Assembly: GCF_000025505.1 (NCBI RefSeq)
Contig: NC_013849.1
Span: 1,770,001-1,802,000, forward strand
DNA: 32,000 nt
Reading direction: 5' to 3'
Source of the DNA: Ferroglobus placidus DSM 10642
GTDB taxonomy: Archaea; Halobacteriota; Archaeoglobi; Archaeoglobales; Archaeoglobaceae
Under the pieces are notes generated by a model, which ran no database searches, was not told the origin of the DNA, and saw nothing but the letters and a program-made list of their open reading frames with translations. This document shows, one piece after another, positions 7,243 to 17,477 of this stretch (position 1 is the first letter of the stretch; the number at the start of each line of letters is the position of its first letter). The position numbers were made by a program, and so were the translations under genes.

Positions 7243-7314
7243 TGCCCCGGCCGGGACTTGAACCCGGGTCCGGGAGTCCGCAGCCCCCGAGGATATCCGC
7301 TACCCCACCGGGGC
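7243..7314 (-). tRNA. tRNA-Arg (anticodon GCG), no encoded CCA
   Basis: The reverse complement GCCCCGGTGGGGTAGCGGATATCCTCGGGGGCTGCGGACTCCCGGACCCGGGTTCAAGTCCCGGCCGGGGCA folds as a cloverleaf. The acceptor stem is 7 bp (GCCCCGG/CCGGGGC). The anticodon stem is GGGGG/CTCCC with loop CTGCGGA. The T arm is CCGGG-TTCAAGT-CCCGG, and A14, G18G19 and A21 are in place. Confidence 0.9.
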
Positions 7315-7565: not shown

Positions 7566-8446
7566 ATGGTTAAACGATCGTTTAAGGTTTCATCAGCAGC
7601 GACAATGATACTCATATTAACATTTCTATTTGTAATTTTACATCTCGCTACAGCAACTCCAGAATTCGGTGCGAAAGAAAGCAGAAATTGCGATTTTTGC
7701 CACGTAGAAGGGGACTACTCTCAGCTTAACGAGAGGGGAATTTACTATCTTCGGCACAACTACTCCTTTGAAGGGTACGTTGAGAAAGAGGAAGAGCTGA
7801 ACGGTGGGGAAGGATTGTATAAAAAGTACTGTAGAGGCTGCCACGGTGAAGTTCCAGAGGAATTTAGGTATAAAGATTTGAATGAGGCTGTCATTGAAGC
7901 GATAAAAAGCGGGAGAATGCCACCTTGGGGTATTGATGAGGAACTAAGCGAGGAGGAAATTAAAGAACTCGCATCCTATATTGGCAACTGGTGCAACTTA
8001 TGCCATAAACGGATTGAGACAAATCCTACTCCGAGAGAACTTGTTAATGCTCCTCCAAATCACAGATTCAAGCTTGAACACGGCAACTTCTGGTGCTTCG
8101 CCTGCCACAATCCTGAAAATAGAGATACATTCCTTCTTGTTAATGGTTCAGCTATACCTTTCAGCAAATCTCCAGAGCTGTGTAGGCAGTGCCATGCTGT
8201 GATATACAAAGACTGGAAAATGCCATCCACGGTAGATGGGTGGGCAACATATCAAACCCAACTCCCGATGTCATCTGCACAGACTGCCACGATCCTCACG
8301 ACATTAATCCAGCATTTAAACCGATCACTCCTGAAAAACCCCCAGAAAAACCACCCTCGCCTCCTATTCCTTTAACTTTCCAATACTTCGCAACAGCCAT
8401 TATGGCGTTTAGTTTGGTTTTGATGCTATACTCTGCCAGAAAATGA
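7566..8446 (+). pseudogene. Membrane-anchored multihaem cytochrome c (six CxxCH), disrupted by a frameshift at the A4 run 8217-8220
   Basis: ORF 7566..8375 carries CDFCH, CRGCH, CNLCH, CFACH and CRQCH. Sense is lost after ...CRQCHAVIYKDWK. ORF 8189..8446 (-1 frame) continues with NAIHGRWVGN...CTDCHDPH, a PEKPPEKPP linker and a C-terminal TM anchor. The GGAGGTG Shine-Dalgarno at 7551-7557 and the N-terminal signal/anchor support the 7566 start. Confidence 0.8.
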
Positions 8447-8457
8447 GAGGTGATTTC

Positions 8458-9420
8458 ATGAAAAGGAGGGATTTTATCAAGAAGGTTGTTATGACTTCTG
8501 CAATAGCTCCTGTAGCTTCCCTCAGAATATCGTTCCTGAACGTTTCAATTGAAGAGCTAACTCAAAAGCATTTCAAAGAGATGAGCGAAGAGGAAAAGAA
8601 AGCGGTTATAGAAAGACTCGAAAGAGAGTACAAAGAAAGGTATGGCGTTGATGTGAACATAAAAACCACCCCAGCAAAAGAAGGCGTGGTTTGGGGTTAC
8701 GCTTTAAACATAAAAAGGTGTATAGGCTGCAGACGTTGCGTTTACGCTTGCGTTAAGGAGAACAATCAGTCCAGAGCTTCTCCCGACGATCCTACGAGCA
8801 ACGAAATCCACTGGATACGTGTGTTGGAGGTGGCACAGGAGAAACTTGAGCCGGGGACTGAAGAGCAGGGAATTGGTACGAAGTTCGGGGATGTTGTTGC
8901 GGGTGTCGTTTTAGAGGAGAGCGAACACTACTATGATCCCGAAAAAGTCCCAGAAGACGGGAAGATGTACATCCCCATTCAATGTCAGCAATGCGAAAAG
9001 CCGCCGTGCGTTAAAGTTTGCCCAACAAGAGCCACTTGGAAAGAGCCCGACGGGATAATCGTCATAGACTACAACTGGTGCATAGGTTGCAGATACTGCA
9101 TGGCAGCCTGCCCTTATTGGGCGAGGAGATTCAACTGGAGCTGGCCGTACATTCCAAAAGAAGAGATTAATCCGAATCAGCATTATCTGGGCAATCGAAT
9201 AAGGTATAGAGGTGTGGTGGAGAAGTGTACTTTCTGCATTCAGCGAACGAGGGAGGGAAGATATCCCGCATGCGTAGAAGCATGTCCGGTTGGAGCGAGA
9301 AAGTTTGGAAATCTTCTCGATCCAAATAGCGAGATAAGGAAAATAATCAGAGAAAAAAAGGTGTTCAGGCTGAAAGAGGAGCTTGGCACGGAGCCGAAGT
9401 TCTTCTATTTTATGGACTGA
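8458..9420 (+). CDS. Tat-exported 4x[4Fe-4S] ferredoxin-type subunit (NrfC/DmsB/PsrB/HybA family)
   Basis: Has the twin-arginine signal MKRRDFIKKVV. There are four Cys clusters: CIGCRRCVYAC, CQQCEKPPCVKVCP, CIGCRYCMAACP and CTFC...CVEACP. GAGGTGA lies upstream of ATG 8458. Confidence 0.85.
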   Translation: MKRRDFIKKVVMTSAIAPVASLRISFLNVSIEELTQKHFKEMSEEEKKAVIERLEREYKERYGVDVNIKTTPAKEGVVWGYALNIKRCIGCRRCVYACVKENNQSRASPDDPTSNEIHWIRVLEVAQEKLEPGTEEQGIGTKFGDVVAGVVLEESEHYYDPEKVPEDGKMYIPIQCQQCEKPPCVKVCPTRATWKEPDGIIVIDYNWCIGCRYCMAACPYWARRFNWSWPYIPKEEINPNQHYLGNRIRYRGVVEKCTFCIQRTREGRYPACVEACPVGARKFGNLLDPNSEIRKIIREKKVFRLKEELGTEPKFFYFMD

Positions 9421-9433
9421 TGAGGTGGAGAGA

Positions 9434-10027
9434 GTGAAAGGTATTTTGAGGGAAATTCGTTACTTTCTGGACTTCGTGCTTGCATCAATAAAAATAGCTC
9501 TCACCGGCGATCGAAGGTATTACGTATGGCTCGCGAGCTTGGTTATGCTCGTCGTTCTCGGGACTTATGCGTACGTATACCAGCTCATGCATGGTCTAAT
9601 TGTTACCGGAATGCGTGATCAAGTGAGCTGGGGGCTTTACATCTCAAACTTCACGTTCTTCGTTGGTGTTGCAGCTTCAGCAGTTCTAATCGTCGCACCC
9701 CTCTATCTCTACAACTACAGGGAATTTGAGTACATTGTCACTTTCGGAGAATTCTTGGCAGTGGCAGCTCTGATAATCGCACTTACAAACGTTTTAGCTG
9801 ATGTGGGTAGAGTAGAAAGGTTGTGGCACATGTTTCCGCTGATCGGAACTCCGAACTGGCCTGATTCGATGCTTGTTTGGGATGTCATTGTGCTGAACGG
9901 ATACCTGCTTTTGAATCTCTTGATTCCGGGATACAAACTTTACAAGAAGTACATAGGCTCAGAGCCAAGTAATTGGATAAAGTTCTTCATATTTCTTTCC
10001 ATTCCCTGGGCAGCCCTGTCAACTTAA
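9434..10027 (+). pseudogene. NrfD/PsrC-like integral membrane quinol-interacting subunit, 3'-truncated by an IS remnant
   Basis: It follows the NrfC-like gene with GAGGTGGAG before GTG 9434. Only about 198 aa (4-5 TM helices) remain, whereas the family is typically well over 300 aa. The last codons overlap the end of the IS6-type transposase reading frame (stop at 10019-10021 on the minus strand). Confidence 0.65.
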
Positions 10028-10600
10028 CCACCTCAGATGATTGTAATAGAGCATGAAGAGTTTGCAGAATAGATTCCAGTTTTTAATTGGATTTTTAGTG
10101 GAAATCGAACAGAAGAACAGCTTAACTCTCTGTTTAAATGAGCTGAACGTCGCTTCAACCAGACTTCTCTTTCCGAAAGGTTTGGTGTTCAAATTCCAAG
10201 CCTAAACTTTCTATTGCTTTTCTCAGCCATGGTGCTTTGTCTATCAAAAACTTGGGTTCGTTCTCGCAGTAATTAAGAACTTCTTTGACGAAAGACCTTG
10301 CTGTAAGAATGTTTCTCGTCGTGTTCTTCTCAGTCGAAATCGGCAGTTTTTTAAACTTCTTTATCCACTTCCACACAGCCGTATGGGAGACCGGACGAAA
10401 CTCTGAGAGAATTTTAGCCGTTCTCCTCGTCGAAGAAGTTTGAACGTAAGTGGCTACGCCAAGAATTCTAATGTCGTTCGGAACTCTTTCCCTCTCAAAC
10501 AACTCAAGCTCCTCTATAAGCTTCTTCAACTTCATCAAAATTGTCTGAATAATATTCTGGGAAGGTAAAGTTTACGGGTCTAACTTGAAGATCGATTGGC
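10005..10600 (-). mobile_element. IS6-family insertion sequence remnant (internally deleted, non-autonomous); boundaries approximate
   Basis: Contains a degenerate transposase (next feature). The left end GGGCAGCCCTGTCAAC (about 10006-10021) resembles IS6/IS26-type terminal repeats (GGCAC TGTTGCAAA). I could not find a matching right inverted repeat by eye. Confidence 0.55.
10019..10538 (-). pseudogene. IS6-family transposase, internally deleted (DDE core missing) and frameshifted
   Basis: ORF 10155..10538 has an N-terminal HTH (TRRTAKILSEFRPVSHTAVWKWIKKF). It then jumps directly to the C-terminal IS6 block TRNILTARSFVKEVL...FLIDKAPWLRKAIESLGLEFEHQTF. After a frameshift near 10170-10185 the next frame reads FGKRSLVEATFSSFKQRVKLFF...LFMLYYNHLRW to a stop at 10019. 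Confidence 0.6.
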
Positions 10601-10630: not shown

Positions 10631-10843
10631 ATGAAAACTATAACAATATCGGATGAAGTCTACGAGAAGCTCGTTAGGATCAAGGGAAAGAAGAGTTTCA
10701 GTGCCATCATAGATGAGCTGATAAAAAGAAATGTAGAGAAAAGGATTGAAATGTTAATTAAATCCGCCGAGAAGACGGGATATGAGGATGAACTAGAGAA
10801 AATCTCCAAGGAAATAAGAAAGAGCTTCAGGGTGAGAATTTGA
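10631..10843 (+). CDS. vapB: VapB-type antitoxin (small archaeal UPF0330-like family)
   Basis: 70 aa, MKTITISDEVYEKLVRIKGKKSFSAIIDELI. It overlaps the downstream PIN-domain gene by 4 nt. Confidence 0.75.
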   Translation: MKTITISDEVYEKLVRIKGKKSFSAIIDELIKRNVEKRIEMLIKSAEKTGYEDELEKISKEIRKSFRVRI

Positions 10844-11256
10844 ATCTCATACTCGATACGTCGTTCCTAATCGAGCTTAAAAAGGGTAATAAAAAAGCTG
10901 TAGAAGCTTTAAATGAGCGAAAAGAAGATTGCGAAGATATAGTTGTCAGCACGCTAACTGTCTACGAGCTACTCGTAGGAGCTAACTACATCTGGAAAAA
11001 GCACGGTAATGCAAAAGAGATGATGATAATCAGCGACATGCTGAAGGCTCTAACAGTTGTTCCAGTCGATTTAGATGTTGTAAAAAGAGCATCCGAGGTA
11101 AAAGCTGAACTGATTCTTAGAGGTATTGACGTTCCAGACTTGGACATTCTGATAGCTTGCAGTACCGACGGGGAAATTTTAACATTTGATAAAGACTTCA
11201 ATCCGTTAAAGGAATTGGGGTTTAAGATTTCGTTTTTAGGTGATGAGGATGAATGA
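10840..11256 (+). CDS. vapC: VapC PIN-domain ribonuclease toxin
   Basis: Contains LILDTSFLIEL (first acidic residue), TVYELLVGA, and DLDILIACS...TFDKDF. The only available start is TTG at 10840, overlapping the vapB stop (ATTTGA). Confidence 0.8.
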   Translation: MNLILDTSFLIELKKGNKKAVEALNERKEDCEDIVVSTLTVYELLVGANYIWKKHGNAKEMMIISDMLKALTVVPVDLDVVKRASEVKAELILRGIDVPDLDILIACSTDGEILTFDKDFNPLKELGFKISFLGDEDE

Positions 11257-12708
11257 ATTTCCGATAAAAAAGGACTTTCATAGAGGAGACTTTCCTAGTT
11301 AAAGAGGTTAGCGAGAAGTCTGCGAGGGAGAAGAACATAAGGCACGGTCACATTTCGACTTTGCACATCTGGTGGGCGAGGCGACCTTTAGCTGCTTCGA
11401 GGGCAACAGCCTATGCTGCTTTAATTCCAGCTCCAGAGGATGTCGAAGAGGCTGAGAAGGTAAAGCAGTTTATAGCCGAGCTTTGCAAATGGGAAAATTC
11501 GCTGAACCCAACATACGTCGAGAAAGCGAGAGAGGACATCAGAAAGGCTCTGGGTTATACACCAAGAGTTCTCGATCCTTTCGCTGGTGGTGGTGCAATT
11601 CCTTTAGAGGCTTTGAGGTTGGGCTGTGAAGTTTACGCTTCGGACTACAATCCAGTTGCGGTTTTGATTCTGAAGGCTGTTTTGGAGTATCCGCAGAAGT
11701 ATGGTAAAAAGCTAGTCGAAGATGTCAAGAAGTGGGGAGAGTGGGTTCTTGAGGAGGCGAAGAAGGAGATTGGAAGGTTTTACCCAAACGATGTGATTGA
11801 GCAGAAGGGATACTTCGGCGAGAGTGGGGAAGAGTATATTCCCGTTGGCTACATCTGGGCGAGAACTATTCCATGCCAGAACCCAGCTTGCGGAGCTGAA
11901 ATTCCCTTAATGAGGCAGTTCTGGTTAGCGAAGAAGAGCAACAAGAAAGTTGCTCTTTATCCTTACGTTGAGGGTAAGGAAGTGAGGTTCAAGGTTGTTG
12001 GAGATGGTTATGAAAAGATGCCGGCTGGATTCGACCCGTCTAAGGGAACTGTGAAGGGTGCAATTGCAACATGTCTTGTCTGCGGTTCGACAGTTGATGC
12101 CAAGACAACGAGAAGACTGTTTCAGGAAGGCAAAGCAGGAGAGAGGATGGTTGCTGTCGTTTTGCATCATCCCAAAAAGAAGGGGAAGTTTTACAGGGTG
12201 GCGAATGAGAAAGACATGGAGGTTTTCAGGCAGGCTGAGGAGTACTTGGCTGAGAAGATTGAGGAGCTGAGAAAGAAGTGGGGGATTGAGCCTGTTCCTG
12301 ATGAACCTTTAAGGAGAGTGCCAGTACCTTTTGGAGTCATAAACGTTTGGGTTTATGGCATGAAAACATGGGGCGATTTGTTCAATTCAAGGCAAAAGCT
12401 TGCATTGATTACGTTTGTGGATAAGGTTAGGGAGGCTTACCGCAAGATGGTTGAGGAAGGCAATGAGGGGGTATGCGAGGGCCGTTGTGACGTATTTGGG
12501 GTTGAATTTCGATATTTTCGCCACCTACAGTTGCTCTCTTGCAAGATATAGAGGTGACACCGAGTCGATAGAAAGAATCTTTGATAGACAAGCTCTTCAA
12601 ATGGTTTGGGATTATGGTGAGGTTAATCCATTCGGAAAATCAAGAGGGGACTGGTTAGAAATTATCAGTTTTAGCATAAGGGTCATTGAAGGCAATTCGA
12701 AAATCTAA
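11253..12708 (+). pseudogene. DUF1156-type (COG1743) Zn-ribbon DNA methylase, N-terminal ~480 codons only, with three lesions
   Basis: Has the signature REKNIRHGHISTLHIWWARRPLAASRA and a Zn-ribbon CQNPACGAE...CLVCGS. Lesion 1: ATG 11253 is in frame but codon 5 is TAA (11265-11267). Lesion 2: a frameshift in the G5 run 12467-12471 joins ORF 11361..12551 to ORF 12415..12708 (..EEGNEG|YARAVVTYLGLNFD..QALQMVWDYGEVNPFG). Lesion 3: homology stops at 12708, before any catalytic methyltransferase motifs. Confidence 0.8.
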
Positions 12709-13648
12709 CAATCTTCTCTAGTCTCAATCTCAAAGGTGGATGTGTTTTGGGTAAGGGTCTGTTAAAAATAATCTGGGGGTTGAGGTAAACAATGACAGAC
12801 TTTATTATTTCCCTGAAAAGTGCTTTGTAAGATACTCCCTCGACTAATAAGTTACCTGAAAATTCAACATTCTTTAAAAAAGACTCATAGCCTCTCAAAT
12901 TGTTGTAAATATGCAATTTAACAAGTGCCATTGCAGTTGGCTTAAATCCTACCATCTGCGTTGCATAAACGTCCGCCTCGTGCTCGTTTATCCAGCTTGA
13001 AATCATGAATGAAATGGCATACATTGGCAAAAATGCTACGAATGTCAAAGATAAGCTAATTTTCAGAGAAATATTAATATTCGAAAATAGAATTAACTGA
13101 GTTATAGCTATAATAAACGACGCTAACACGAGCCACAAACCACGCATGATTACCGTTGTAACGAACCAGAATTTGTTTTTAGAGTGCCCAATCTCATGAT
13201 AAATAATAGCTTCTCTTTCTTTCTCCGATAAAACTTCAAAAAGACTCTTGGTAATGTGTATATCCCTTTTCCTCGGATTAAACCACGCATTGTAAATTTT
13301 ATTAGCGTCATAGCATAGAATAATCGGAATCCCATTAATTTCGCTAATTTTCTCCGTATTCATGCATTTGAATTCTGAATATTCCCACCAGATTAGGAGG
13401 GTGATTAACAAAAAGAAAATAAAATACGCCATGACTGTAATAAGTAGGTTTGAACTAATCGCTGATAAAATCACACCTGTTAAAATCGAAAGAACCAGTA
13501 ACACAATAAAAAACTGCAAAAGAGTTAACAGTGACTTTCCCTTTTTGAGATATCCCACATATGTCAGAATAAGCGAAATGCAAAATAGGAGAGTCATCAA
13601 TAAAATTCCAAACAACAAATTTGTGACCAGAAAACTGGTGATATTCAT
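12683..13648 (-). CDS. M48-family (HtpX/Ste24-like) membrane zinc metalloprotease
   Basis: Has HExxH in AIIYHEIGHSK, a downstream NEHEADVYA (third ligand region) and a C-terminal KTHPPLRLRLEKI. There are 4 or more TM helices. The gene is very AT-rich. Confidence 0.75.
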   Translation of the reverse strand: MNITSFLVTNLLFGILLMTLLFCISLILTYVGYLKKGKSLLTLLQFFIVLLVLSILTGVILSAISSNLLITVMAYFIFFLLITLLIWWEYSEFKCMNTEKISEINGIPIILCYDANKIYNAWFNPRKRDIHITKSLFEVLSEKEREAIIYHEIGHSKNKFWFVTTVIMRGLWLVLASFIIAITQLILFSNINISLKISLSLTFVAFLPMYAISFMISSWINEHEADVYATQMVGFKPTAMALVKLHIYNNLRGYESFLKNVEFSGNLLVEGVSYKALFREIIKSVIVYLNPQIIFNRPLPKTHPPLRLRLEKIVRFSNCLQ

Positions 13649-13755
13649 ATGCTCTAGTTACTGTCATTTTCTTAAAAATTTTTGGCATACTTATCAAGAT
13701 TTAAGGATTTCTAACCCCACCAACAAGTCAATCTCATTTAAAGAAACAGAAACAA

Positions 13756-13771
13756 AAGATATTAATATCTT
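13756..13771. promoter_or_regulatory. Perfect 16-nt palindrome AAGATATTAATATCTT in the divergent intergenic spacer
   Basis: Read directly from the sequence; all 8 pairs are complementary. It is flanked by the near-direct repeats TTAAAGAAACA / TTAAAGAACA. Its function (operator?) is inferred only. Confidence 0.35.
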
Positions 13772-13848
13772 AAAGAACATTTAACAGTATGTTTGAGCAA
13801 GCAATTAAGACAGTAGAATTTTTAACCAAATAATCAGGTTGCCAAAAT

Positions 13849-14013
13849 ATGATATTCGGCTTCATCGTCCTTGCATTGCTCTATCCAATTTTGAAACAAA
13901 TGGCTCCAGACCCACAAACTCAGAGCTTTCTGCTCACTGTTTTAGCTGTGGCGATCATTTCACTTTCACTAATCAGTATTGCCTCAGAGGATGCTCGTGC
14001 AATCATAATTTAG
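13849..14013 (+). CDS. Candidate 54-aa two-TM peptide (below the ORF-track cutoff)
   Basis: ATG 13849 to TAG 14011-14013 encodes MIFGFIVLALLYPILKQMAPDPQTQSFLLTVLAVAIISLSLISIASEDARAIII: two hydrophobic helices joined by a Pro/Gln loop. It competes with the TTG-started Cys-rich ORF 13839..14078 in another frame. No clear Shine-Dalgarno. Confidence 0.3.
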   Translation: MIFGFIVLALLYPILKQMAPDPQTQSFLLTVLAVAIISLSLISIASEDARAIII

Positions 14014-14135
14014 TTGCTCATACCTTTGCATTCTTCAGAATCTTAACAATTCTCAGCACTAACACCGCCAAGTTTTAAAAGTTTAAATGACTATAAACAA
14101 ACAGACAATCAGAAAATGAAAAAGGGAGATGAAGT

Positions 14136-14876
14136 ATGACTTTACACAAATCGCTGGAAGCCAACATAAGAAAAATCACTCCTAAAGAGTTGCTGGGGCG
14201 AAAGCTTAACGATTTTGAGAGGAGATACGCTCCAAAGGAGCTTTACATTGCAGGTTCGATGAAGATACCTCTCCCAGAGCCGAGGGTGGCTGTAATTGGA
14301 ACAAGAAAACCATCGCCTAAGGGAATCGAGGCTGCATCAAAAATTACGAAGGTTCTTGTTGAGCACGGTGTTGTGGTCGTAAGCGGTCTCGCAAGGGGAA
14401 TTGACACCGTTGCACACAAAACAGCAATTGAAAATGGCGGAAAAACAATCGCTGTGTTGGGGACTCCTCTCAACAAATTTTATCCTGCGGAAAACAAACC
14501 TCTGCAGGAGCTAATCATGAAAGAGCATTTGGCTATCAGCCAGTATCCCATCGGATACATCACCAAGCCGAAACACTTCGTTCTCAGGAACCGAACTATG
14601 GCTTTGATATCCAACGCAAGCATCATTGTTGAGGCAGGGGAAAGCAGTGGGGTGATTTCTCAGGGTTGGGAGACTTTGAGACTTGGCAGACCACTCTTTT
14701 TCTGGAAATCACTTGTGGAAAAGGACTTTAAATGGGTCAGAGAAATGATGAAGTATGGGGCTTGCGTTCTTCAAAATGTCAATGATTTGAAGCGTGCCAT
14801 TCGTGAGATGCTCCCTCCTCCTGCAGAAATTCCAAAATCAGAGTTAAGGGTTGTAGACCTCAGTAGTTTTCTATAG
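14136..14876 (+). CDS. DprA/Smf-like Rossmann (SLOG superfamily) protein, stand-alone core domain
   Basis: RVAVIGTRKPSPKGIEAASKITKVLVEHGVVVVSGLARGIDTVAHKTAIENGGKTIAVLGTPLNKFYPAENKPL...FVLRNRTMALISNASIIVEAGESSGV matches the DprA core (GxARGID..AH, GG.TIAVLG, RNR, SG). It lacks the bacterial SAM and winged-helix extensions. GGGAGATGA lies before the ATG. Confidence 0.8.
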   Translation: MTLHKSLEANIRKITPKELLGRKLNDFERRYAPKELYIAGSMKIPLPEPRVAVIGTRKPSPKGIEAASKITKVLVEHGVVVVSGLARGIDTVAHKTAIENGGKTIAVLGTPLNKFYPAENKPLQELIMKEHLAISQYPIGYITKPKHFVLRNRTMALISNASIIVEAGESSGVISQGWETLRLGRPLFFWKSLVEKDFKWVREMMKYGACVLQNVNDLKRAIREMLPPPAEIPKSELRVVDLSSFL

Positions 14877-14881
14877 GATTT

Positions 14882-15601
14882 ATGAACGTAGAAGAAATTT
14901 TAAAAAAGCTCGAATTTTGCTCAATGTTCTCCTATTGCCCCAAGGACGATTCTGAAGAAGGGTCGTTTGCGAAGAAGGTTATGAGCTGGATAAAAAATGA
15001 TACCGTTGTAGCAGTCAAAAAACCAGTAGTTAGAGAAGGTAAGACGAAAATGATTCAGCAAGAAATGCCTATGTCCTGTTATGTGGCTGAGCAATTGAAA
15101 ATTTTGGTCGACAAAGGTTATTTCTCAGACTTCTTCCCTAAAGATGTGATTTTAGTCCCCATGCCTCGATCATCACCAATTAAGAAGGGACAACTTTGGC
15201 CAGCATATCAGATAGCAAAAGCGATGGAAGACGAAGGATTAGGAGTTGTTGAGCCACTAATCCAAAGAGTGTCCCCTATCCAAAAGTCATCTTATGCTCC
15301 ACCAAACAAAAGACCAAAACCTGCAGACCACTTTAACAGCATGAGAGTTAGCCAGATTGTGGATTTGGATTGTAACCATGTTTTGCTTGTCGACGACATC
15401 GTAACCAGAGGACACACATTCATGGGTGCAGCTTGGAGAATTAAGGTTGCATACCCCGAAGCTGAAATAAAAGCATTTGCAGCAATGCAAACAATCAGCG
15501 ATAAATCAAAATTTAAGAGATACTTCTATCCGGCAAAAGGAACAATAAATTATTGGCCAAATTCCGGAACCTGCAGACGCGATTGGGAACCTATTAGATA
15601 A
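14882..15601 (+). CDS. ComF/GntX-like phosphoribosyltransferase-fold protein
   Basis: Has the PRPP-binding loop HVLLVDDIVTRGHTF, and the upstream VILVPMPRSS...WPAYQIAKAM resembles ComF-type PRTases. It starts 5 nt after the DprA-like stop, so the two form an operon. Confidence 0.75.
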   Translation: MNVEEILKKLEFCSMFSYCPKDDSEEGSFAKKVMSWIKNDTVVAVKKPVVREGKTKMIQQEMPMSCYVAEQLKILVDKGYFSDFFPKDVILVPMPRSSPIKKGQLWPAYQIAKAMEDEGLGVVEPLIQRVSPIQKSSYAPPNKRPKPADHFNSMRVSQIVDLDCNHVLLVDDIVTRGHTFMGAAWRIKVAYPEAEIKAFAAMQTISDKSKFKRYFYPAKGTINYWPNSGTCRRDWEPIR

Positions 15602-16914: not shown

Positions 16915-17286
16915 ATGGAACCCAATCCAAAAATCTCAAAAATCATCGAAACCATCAAATCCCATCCCAACGTAATTGCAATCTACCTCTTTGGATCTCA
17001 CGCTAAAGGAGAAACCACTCCGCTATCAGACATCGACATTGCAGTAATCCTCGAAAACCCAACTCCGGAAAGCGAAGCGGACATCGGAAGCTTATCATCT
17101 CCAGAAATAGATGTCGTCCTTTTCCACCGCCTACCTTTGCACATAAAATACGAAGTCTTCAAATACGGAAAGGAGATATTCGTTCGAGACGAGGAAAAGC
17201 TCTTGGAGATTAAGCTAAAGGTTATGAGAGAATACCTCGATACGGTTAGAATGTATAAAATGATATCATCAGAGGTGCTCGGATGA
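16915..17286 (+). CDS. MNT-type nucleotidyltransferase (antitoxin of HEPN/MNT modules)
   Basis: Has the LFGSHAKGETTPLSDIDIAV minimal NTase motif (GS...DxD). Confidence 0.8.
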   Translation: MEPNPKISKIIETIKSHPNVIAIYLFGSHAKGETTPLSDIDIAVILENPTPESEADIGSLSSPEIDVVLFHRLPLHIKYEVFKYGKEIFVRDEEKLLEIKLKVMREYLDTVRMYKMISSEVLG

Positions 17287-17477
17287 GGCTTGTTGAATAC
17301 ATCCTAAGATTCGAAAGACATCTTGAAGGAGCCAAAAATCTTAAGTCGAAAGACGTAAGAGACTATTTTGTATACAATACGCTCGCAATGGAATGTTTGC
17401 AAGCTGAAATTGTAAACCTCCTTGAAAAATGCTCCGATTTTGTTAACAGAGTGAAAGAGGAAGCTTGCAGAATCTGA
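17283..17477 (+). pseudogene. HEPN/DUF86-like partner, apparently C-terminally truncated (no Rx4-6H motif)
   Basis: ATGA overlap with the MNT gene. The N-terminal helices (ILRFERHLEGAKNL...NTLAMECLQAEIV) resemble the DUF86 N-terminus. The ORF is only 64 aa, and I found no continuation in any frame downstream. Confidence 0.45.

Follow-up and report, generated by a model that had tools for sequence, protein, structure and literature searches.

What could a DprA-like gene followed by a phosphoribosyltransferase (PRTase) gene be doing in a hyperthermophilic archaeon? The question is raised by Ferp_2073 and Ferp_2074 of Ferroglobus placidus DSM 10642, which lie at 14136..14876 and 14882..15601 of a 32,000-nt stretch of DNA (NC_013849.1, positions 1,770,001 to 1,802,000; hereafter, the window). 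According to the list of open reading frames (ORFs), both are on the + strand and are separated by 5 nt. In the existing annotation, Ferp_2073 (ADC66205.1) is an 'SMF family protein' or DprA, and Ferp_2074 is a 'hypothetical protein' or phosphoribosyltransferase. Six proteins of the window were compared by exact sequence, and each is identical to a protein of F. placidus DSM 10642, which confirms the archaeal origin. An earlier note on this DNA had proposed a candidate nucleotide-centred defence module at 14136-15601. The two adjacent genes were found at exactly these coordinates, and the motifs on which the proposal leaned are present (GLARGIDTVAH, GGKTIAVLG, and RNR in Ferp_2073; VLLVDDIVTRGHTF in Ferp_2074). 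The present study identifies these genes as a compact archaeal member of ShosTA (Shosta, or DprA-PRTase), a known type of system and not a new one. We put at roughly three in four the probability that it works as a ShosTA-type toxin–antitoxin module, serving abortive-infection defence and/or the stabilisation of the mobile DNA that carries it.

Previously, a DprA + PRTase pair in a P2 hotspot has been shown to protect against T7 and lambda (Rousset et al. 2022, PMC9122126). The name ShosTA was given by Millman et al., after an earlier description as a toxin–antitoxin pair that later papers credit to Kimelman 2012. Thus, the statement in the earlier note on an anti-phage pair from the P2/P4 hotspots of E. 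coli was correct, but its view that the mechanism is unknown is outdated. Two structural and biochemical papers from 2025 and 2026 describe E. coli ShosTA as a toxin–antitoxin/abortive-infection system with solved structures, PDB 8zva-8zvd and 9vzo (PMC11961720; PMC12961424). The toxin, ShosT, is made up of a pyrophosphatase-like domain at the N-terminus (1-164) and a PRTase domain (165-424). Its toxicity needs phosphoribosyl pyrophosphate (PRPP) binding and D331/D332, and D331A/D332A abolishes it; the pyrophosphatase mutant R56A has a marginal effect, the pyrophosphatase-like domain only modulating toxicity. ShosT perturbs purine metabolism, and DNA duplications and filamentation result (PMC11961720). 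The antitoxin, ShosA, begins with a SAM domain (1-94), followed by the DprA Rossmann domain and by a C-tail whose disorder renders the protein unstable. ShosA attaches to single-stranded DNA (ssDNA), not to ShosT, and T7 Gp0.7 triggers the system via host expression shut-off (PMC11961720). Furthermore, ShosA is a dimer in which K200 and R206 bind RecA, and ssDNA competes with RecA binding (PMC12961424). DNA binding is required for its antitoxin function. The acceptor substrate used by ShosT has yet to be identified (PMC12961424).

The proteins of the window were screened against Pfam, PADLOC, and NCBIfam. In PADLOC, Ferp_2073 is assigned to ShosA (PDLC03961, 1.1e-73, profile positions 95-294 only) and Ferp_2074 to ShosT (PDLC03962, 6.1e-25). 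The validated pair of an E. coli P2-like phage (Peduovirus P24C9, also P2_4C9), a 349-aa Smf/DprA-like gene followed by a 424-aa gene, matches the same two umbrella models at 2.4e-85 and 1.8e-53. It also matches the E. coli-specific models PDLC02997 and PDLC03012, the latter being a ShosT model that gave no match to Ferp_2074. Since the same umbrella models match the validated pair, Ferp_2073/2074 belongs to the ShosTA family as defined by hidden Markov models (HMMs). The likeness extends to the two-gene arrangement, DprA-like first and PRTase second, to a PRPP loop with the DD pair (essential in E. coli) in both toxins, and to antitoxins with a DprA Rossmann fold, two conserved ssDNA arginines, and a disordered C-tail, which is predicted in Ferp_2073. 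Two other candidates were tried. PsyrTA (RqlHI) also has a DprA-like antitoxin, and PADLOC PsyrA matches Ferp_2073 at 2.9e-24; it was rejected because this match is much weaker than that of ShosA and Ferp_2074 has no PsyrT match. A retron-type PRTase effector was rejected as well, no reverse transcriptase being found among the window ORFs.

Ferp_2073 (246 aa) matches PF02481 (DNA_processg_A) over residues 31-212 at 2.3e-49. Only 30 aa precede the match and 34 aa follow it, and therefore there is no room for SAM or winged-helix extensions. The AlphaFold2 (AF2) model, with a predicted local distance difference test score (pLDDT) of 90, is a bare DprA Rossmann domain without a SAM domain, so the minimal DprA core proposed earlier, devoid of SAM and DNA-binding extensions, was borne out. 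In Foldseek, the model matches S. pneumoniae DprA at 1.7e-18 and E. coli ShosA (8zva) at 1e-13, and its template modelling (TM) score against the Rossmann-only H. pylori DprA is 0.84 (on target). R57 and R151-N152-R153 are invariant in the family alignment. Of the ssDNA-binding arginines of E. coli ShosA, R139 corresponds to R57 and R234 to R151, both invariant in the compact clade to which this copy belongs. Since two of the three such arginines are invariant, Ferp_2073 is best read as an ssDNA-binding antitoxin, at least as far as its residues suggest, and not as the nucleotide binder or hydrolase envisioned in the earlier note. Residues 233-246 (14832..14873, + strand) form a poorly conserved C-terminal tail of variable alignment columns, predicted to be disordered (pLDDT <50).

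Ferp_2074 (239 aa) is matched only weakly by PF00156 (8.4e-5, 22.4 bits, under the 26.3-bit cut-off). Its AF2 model (pLDDT 92.5) has a single PRTase domain, a non-canonical one, and the best fold match in the PDB is E. coli ShosT with PRPP (8zvc, 8.1e-5). Taken together, the Pfam searches and the predicted folds uphold the DprA/SLOG and PRTase calls, PF00156 doing so weakly. The PRPP-binding loop, VLLVDDIVTRGHT, spans residues 167-179 (15380..15418, + strand) and is conserved in the homologues: D171, D172, T175, R176, G177, and T179 are invariant in 20 of them. With hhalign and hmmsearch, it aligns to E. coli ShosT 321-353, and D171/D172 correspond to D331/D332. The compact toxins also carry near-invariant cysteines in an N-terminal EFCSxFSYCP and a C-terminal DCxRRP motif (C19 and C231; C13 is variable). 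In the model, the strands that carry C19 and C231 are neighbours in sequence terms, and the two residues could form a disulfide or a metal site. A tblastn search with Ferp_2074 found nothing in 50,697 phage records.

How far this compact form extends was addressed with an HMM search for relatives of Ferp_2074 among 1.84 billion cluster representatives (50%-identity library). It returned 2066 representatives, 538 of them at E <= 1e-30, and the best 150 of the 2066 are about 144-243 aa long, mostly 200-240 aa. A scan of one genome per species gave 57 loci, 54 archaeal and 3 bacterial, the former from Archaeoglobi, Bathyarchaeia, Nitrososphaeria, Thermoplasmata, Hadarchaeota, Thermoprotei, and Caldarchaeales. 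By sequence, the Ferroglobus copy is thus placed in a compact, mostly archaeal clade. Wherever the sequence upstream of the PRTase gene is available, it carries the DprA-like gene next to it, on the same strand. The ShosT-like gene never occurs without the ShosA-like gene, the three apparent exceptions being two loci at contig ends (L049, L059) and one toxin fragment (L070). When the ORFs of 80 loci were clustered all against all, only the two clusters of the pair itself were widely shared (73-75 loci); flanking clusters reached no more than 5 of the 80, and those few came from closely related genomes. A core, syntenic position with nucleotide-salvage or DNA-repair genes, which the earlier note had named as fatal to a defence role, was looked for in these 80 loci and can be rejected.

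The two genes decay unequally. Among 54 loci, 11 have an interrupted toxin gene, versus 1 for the antitoxin gene (Fisher p=0.004). Ten of the toxin genes are split by frameshifts or stops (L057, L061-L064, L066-L069, L071); in L065, the toxin gene is truncated N-terminally, and a 5.2-kb insertion with repeated ORFs separates it from the antitoxin gene. On the closest Ferroglobus-like contig (L075:8944-9501), it is truncated to 185 aa. Such an asymmetry would fit what is expected for a toxin and its protective partner. Besides, identity across loci is 51-86% for the antitoxin versus 31-72% for the toxin. The higher conservation of the ShosA-like protein would fit an antitoxin whose target is a conserved component of the cell rather than the toxin.

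Several observations weigh against a ShosTA-type module. First, the toxin resembles its prototype loosely. The match of the Ferp_2074 model to 8zvc has a TM score of only 0.42 over 163 columns, and H. pylori ComF (7p0h, 1.4e-4), the second-best fold match, is nearly as good. At the sequence level, the similarity to E. coli ShosT is confined to the PRPP loop: hhalign aligns 33 columns of the family profile at 10% probability. Searches of the PDB with Ferp_2074 and its 20-sequence profile found no ShosT and no ComF, giving weak PRPP-loop matches to orotate phosphoribosyltransferase, PRPP synthetase, and adenine phosphoribosyltransferase. Second, both proteins are much shorter than those of E. 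coli. The toxin has 239 aa versus 424 aa and lacks the N-terminal pyrophosphatase-like domain, whereas the antitoxin has 246 aa versus ~331 aa and lacks the SAM domain, the deletion of which destabilised E. coli ShosA (PMC12961424). Third, residues that matter in E. coli ShosA are not kept. The third ssDNA-binding arginine, R261, is an invariant tryptophan (W178 of Ferp_2073), the RecA contacts K200 and R206 are A118 (variable in the compact clade) and Q124 (an invariant Q), and L181/F182 of the dimer interface are E99/N100, not conserved. Fourth, the toxin frameshifts come from metagenome-assembled genomes, some of them long-read, and part of them may therefore be assembly errors. Fifth, the two ORFs on each side of the pair in 53 non-redundant archaeal loci are heterogeneous, with mobile and defence genes as well as housekeeping genes, and enrichment in defence islands across the archaeal clade is not demonstrated, the neighbours having been counted without a background set. 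Because no family recurs in more than 3 of the 146 flanking proteins scanned, a conserved third component can be ruled out.

Finally, the literature we searched yields no experiment on any archaeal or compact-clade member of ShosTA. To that extent, the earlier claim that an archaeal version is uncharacterised holds. It does not hold as regards recognition, as surveys already find ShosTA to be frequent and widespread among archaea: its frequency in Asgard archaea exceeds that in other prokaryotes (PMC11291487), and in one set of archaeal host genomes 15.95% carry it (PMC13465236).

How, then, might the pair act? Co-transcription, antitoxin first, would start from a promoter upstream of 14136, as the 5-nt spacing and the invariant gene order suggest. 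A putative archaeal operon promoter lies at 14066..14100 (+ strand), an A/T-rich segment 35-70 nt 5′ of the shosA-like start with TATA-like TTTAAAAG, TTTAAAT, and TATAAA, and a Shine-Dalgarno-like GGGAGATGA at 14123..14131 (+ strand) lies 5-13 nt 5′ of the ATG at 14136; both were read from the DNA letters alone. Ferp_2074 would bind PRPP via the VLLVDDIVTRGHT loop and consume or transfer its phosphoribose, with disturbed nucleotide metabolism and damaged DNA replication as the likely effects. Toxicity and the need for PRPP have been shown for E. coli ShosT, and the conserved loop and fold suggest the same here. The DprA-fold protein would not sequester the toxin; it would bind ssDNA and enlist the recombination machinery to counter the damage, as shown for E. 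coli ShosA with RecA. The hyperthermophilic archaeal host has RadA in place of RecA. Because the RecA-contact residues of E. coli are not conserved in Ferp_2073, the partner would be RadA or another protein. Infection by a virus that stops host expression or floods the cell with ssDNA would cause the antitoxin, with its disordered tail, to be lost or titrated. The longer-lived toxin would then kill or arrest the cell, as shown in E. coli with T7 Gp0.7.

Tentatively, and with rather less conviction than for the family role itself, the compact clade might represent a 'minimal ShosTA' with a mechanism of its own. Its PRTase would need no fused pyrophosphatase to be toxic, and its antitoxin would do without the SAM domain and the RecA interface, relying on RadA or on direct sensing of viral ssDNA. 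Such a form could be ancestral to the bacterial and prophage versions. Compact pairs also occur in bacteria. One is present on the 24-kb Paracoccus plasmid p7 (L074:160-3566), directly after repA-parA, and another is on the Allochromatium vinosum plasmid pALVIN01 (L073:5316-7834), beside repB. Like the archaeal pairs, they have short proteins (antitoxin 228 aa, toxin 208-216 aa), the same order, and matches to the same PADLOC models; their genes overlap, and they differ in their bacterial hosts and replicons. The Allochromatium toxin matches the compact-clade HMM at 2e-68. The pair of Burkholderia phage Mana is intermediate, with an antitoxin of 282 aa that has an N-terminal extension and a toxin of which the core only matches (8e-12). 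The searched literature holds no experimental test of the plasmid or phage Mana pairs.

The placement of the plasmid pairs beside replication and partition genes resembles that of a classical stabilisation module. This leads to the strongest of the alternatives, in which the pair would lack any antiviral role and serve purely as an addiction module for integrated or plasmid DNA: a labile DprA-like antitoxin and a stable PRTase toxin would kill cells that lose the element. The proximity to repA-parA and repB, the fact that ShosTA was initially described as a toxin–antitoxin system (credited to Kimelman 2012), and the location of the Ferroglobus copy in a decayed island with insertion sequence and toxin–antitoxin remnants all speak for it. 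However, T7 and lambda are phages against which the E. coli system gives protection (PMC9122126, PMC11961720), and most archaeal copies are chromosomal without obvious element borders. We therefore regard a purely addictive role as unlikely. Addiction and defence are compatible, not mutually exclusive, and the ShosTA-type reading covers both.

A highly improbable alternative retains the nucleotide-centred idea: as in Thoeris-like signalling, a nucleotide signal would be sensed or hydrolysed by the SLOG domain, while the PRTase would produce or remove a modified nucleotide. Ferp_2073 does have the SLOG fold, with a weak match to SLOG cluster4 (PF18306, 2.2e-6) and with LOG and MoCo-carrier structures as more distant matches that rank after the DprA structures in the fold search, and the acceptor of ShosT is still to be found (PMC12961424). 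Against this, R57 and R151, DprA-specific arginines for ssDNA binding, do not vary, both ssDNA and RecA are bound by the E. coli homologue, which needs DNA binding for its antitoxin function, and no signal-generating enzyme (TIR, cyclase) is conserved beside the pair.

The resemblance to the transformation proteins DprA and ComFC also calls for comment. With bacterial DprA (Smf), Ferp_2073 shares the Rossmann/SLOG fold (TM 0.71-0.84), PF02481, and the GTR and RNR ssDNA-binding motifs. It is unlike them in lacking a SAM or C-terminal winged-helix domain, in being always coupled, in the compact clade, to a PRTase gene at variable genomic locations, and in falling under the NCBIfam equivalog cut-offs (TIGR00732, 137.4 versus 191.15 bits; NF008007, 109 versus 495). 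Canonical DprA was rejected on these scores. Ferp_2074 shares with ComFC (ComF) a PRTase fold with a PRPP loop, but it has neither the N-terminal four-cysteine zinc finger, there being no paired CxxC motifs, nor a ComFA or ComEC context. Its score against TIGR00201 is 12.4 bits (E=0.11) versus a cut-off of 233.55. ComFC was rejected on this score and the missing zinc finger, and the label 'ComF-type' used earlier is not supported as a family assignment. The earlier argument against a transformation role, on the other hand, holds. In transformable bacteria, ComFC and DprA interact. Least probable, nevertheless, is a housekeeping role in DNA processing, with the pair as the counterpart of bacterial DprA + ComFC that loads recombinase on incoming or damaged ssDNA in archaeal transformation or repair. 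In its favour, Ferp_2073 resembles bona fide DprA (S. pneumoniae 3uqz, 7e-30) more closely than it does E. coli ShosA (2e-14), and ComF ranks second among the folds for Ferp_2074. Yet, besides the missed cut-offs, the loci compared have no conserved neighbour of any kind and none for DNA uptake or repair, the pair is patchily distributed (the one-genome-per-species scan returned no locus from cultured type species of Archaeoglobus and Geoglobus), decay strikes the toxin-side gene and spares the DprA-like one, and the pair occurs on plasmids and in defence islands.

The assignment to ShosTA gives Ferp_2073 and Ferp_2074 a specific, testable function beyond 'DprA' and 'phosphoribosyltransferase' or 'hypothetical'. 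It also means that the archaeal ShosTA calls of surveys include, in the sampled clade, a compact architecture without the two prototype domains and the RecA-contact residues. Because these are missing, the E. coli mechanism, i.e., RecA recruitment and a pyrophosphatase-coupled PRTase, is unproven for archaea. A minimal thermostable pair could help to identify the acceptor substrate of the ShosT PRTase.

The Ferroglobus pair lies in a decayed defence island of ~7.5 kb, at about 10.0-17.6 kb of the window. Its neighbours include a vapB-vapC (PIN) toxin–antitoxin pair (10631..11256, + strand; PF02697 4.1e-18, PF01850 6.7e-13) and a 396-aa remnant of a DUF1156/HmaB-type DNA adenine methylase (11361..12551, + strand; PF06634, PF02086; PADLOC HmaB 2.3e-65, profile 217-451 of 973). 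The remnant is truncated C-terminally and, judging from the DUF1156 alignment, probably N-terminally too, full-length proteins having ~795-970 aa. Downstream of the pair is an MNT nucleotidyltransferase gene (16915..17286, + strand; PF18765 4.1e-19), the end of which is overlapped by a 64-aa ORF (17283..17477, + strand), possibly a HEPN remnant. The island also encodes a transglutaminase-like membrane protein. The vapBC pair, the HmaB remnant, and the MNT gene uphold a defence-island context for this copy. Of the variable-island neighbours listed in the earlier note, these three and an IS6 fragment were thus recovered; the HEPN partner of the MNT protein was not, as Pfam, PADLOC, and NCBIfam gave no match for the 64-aa ORF.

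The left edge of the island is marked by the IS6-family transposase N-terminal fragment (10155..10538, - strand; NF033587 1.4e-17, profile 1-56 of 202, below cut-off). It adjoins a truncated DsrP-like membrane subunit gene (profile 2-161 of 346) that follows a DsrO-like Fe-S gene, the whole segment spanning 8443-10538 of the window. A search for island borders gave only short repeats at chance level. Within the island, an M48 (HtpX-like) membrane metalloprotease gene (12683..13648, - strand; PF01435 7.5e-14) is a neighbour outside the module. A short ORF of 54 aa (13849-14013, and 13839-14078), hydrophobic and with two predicted membrane helices by eye, immediately precedes the pair in a region of low GC content (33.7% at 13001-14000); it is not conserved beside the pair elsewhere.

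Other loci show further settings of the pair. On the Ferroglobus-like contig (L075:1303-11746, ENA NODE_224), the order is SNF2 helicase, NOV_C, MNT, MazE/PIN, MNT/HepT, HmaB, ShosA, ShosT, and HmaC. Here, ShosA-ShosT lies between HmaB (the DUF1156 methylase) and HmaC (AAA_15, 3.6e-126) of an Hma-like helicase-methylase-ATPase system, into which the MNT/HepT and MazE/PIN pairs are also inserted; the Ferroglobus window keeps the HmaB remnant only. A second close relative (L077) has a resolvase, BrnT, and a full-length DUF1156 methylase near the pair, and full-length DUF1156/HmaB relatives of 494-795 aa adjoin ShosAT in both L075 and L077. In a third close relative, a resolvase, MazE, and an AAA ATPase are found nearby. 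Elsewhere (L013:2590-7618, also L014 and L015), an archaeal pair adjoins a run of numerous short ORFs in which PCNA, a DUF87/HerA-like ATPase, and a histone-fold protein are encoded, a setting that could be an integrated element or a small-genome archaeon. As for RNA genes, an Rfam scan of the whole window at the gathering threshold gave no match, not even to the tRNA family, and ARAGORN places a tRNA-Arg (GCG) at 7243-7314.

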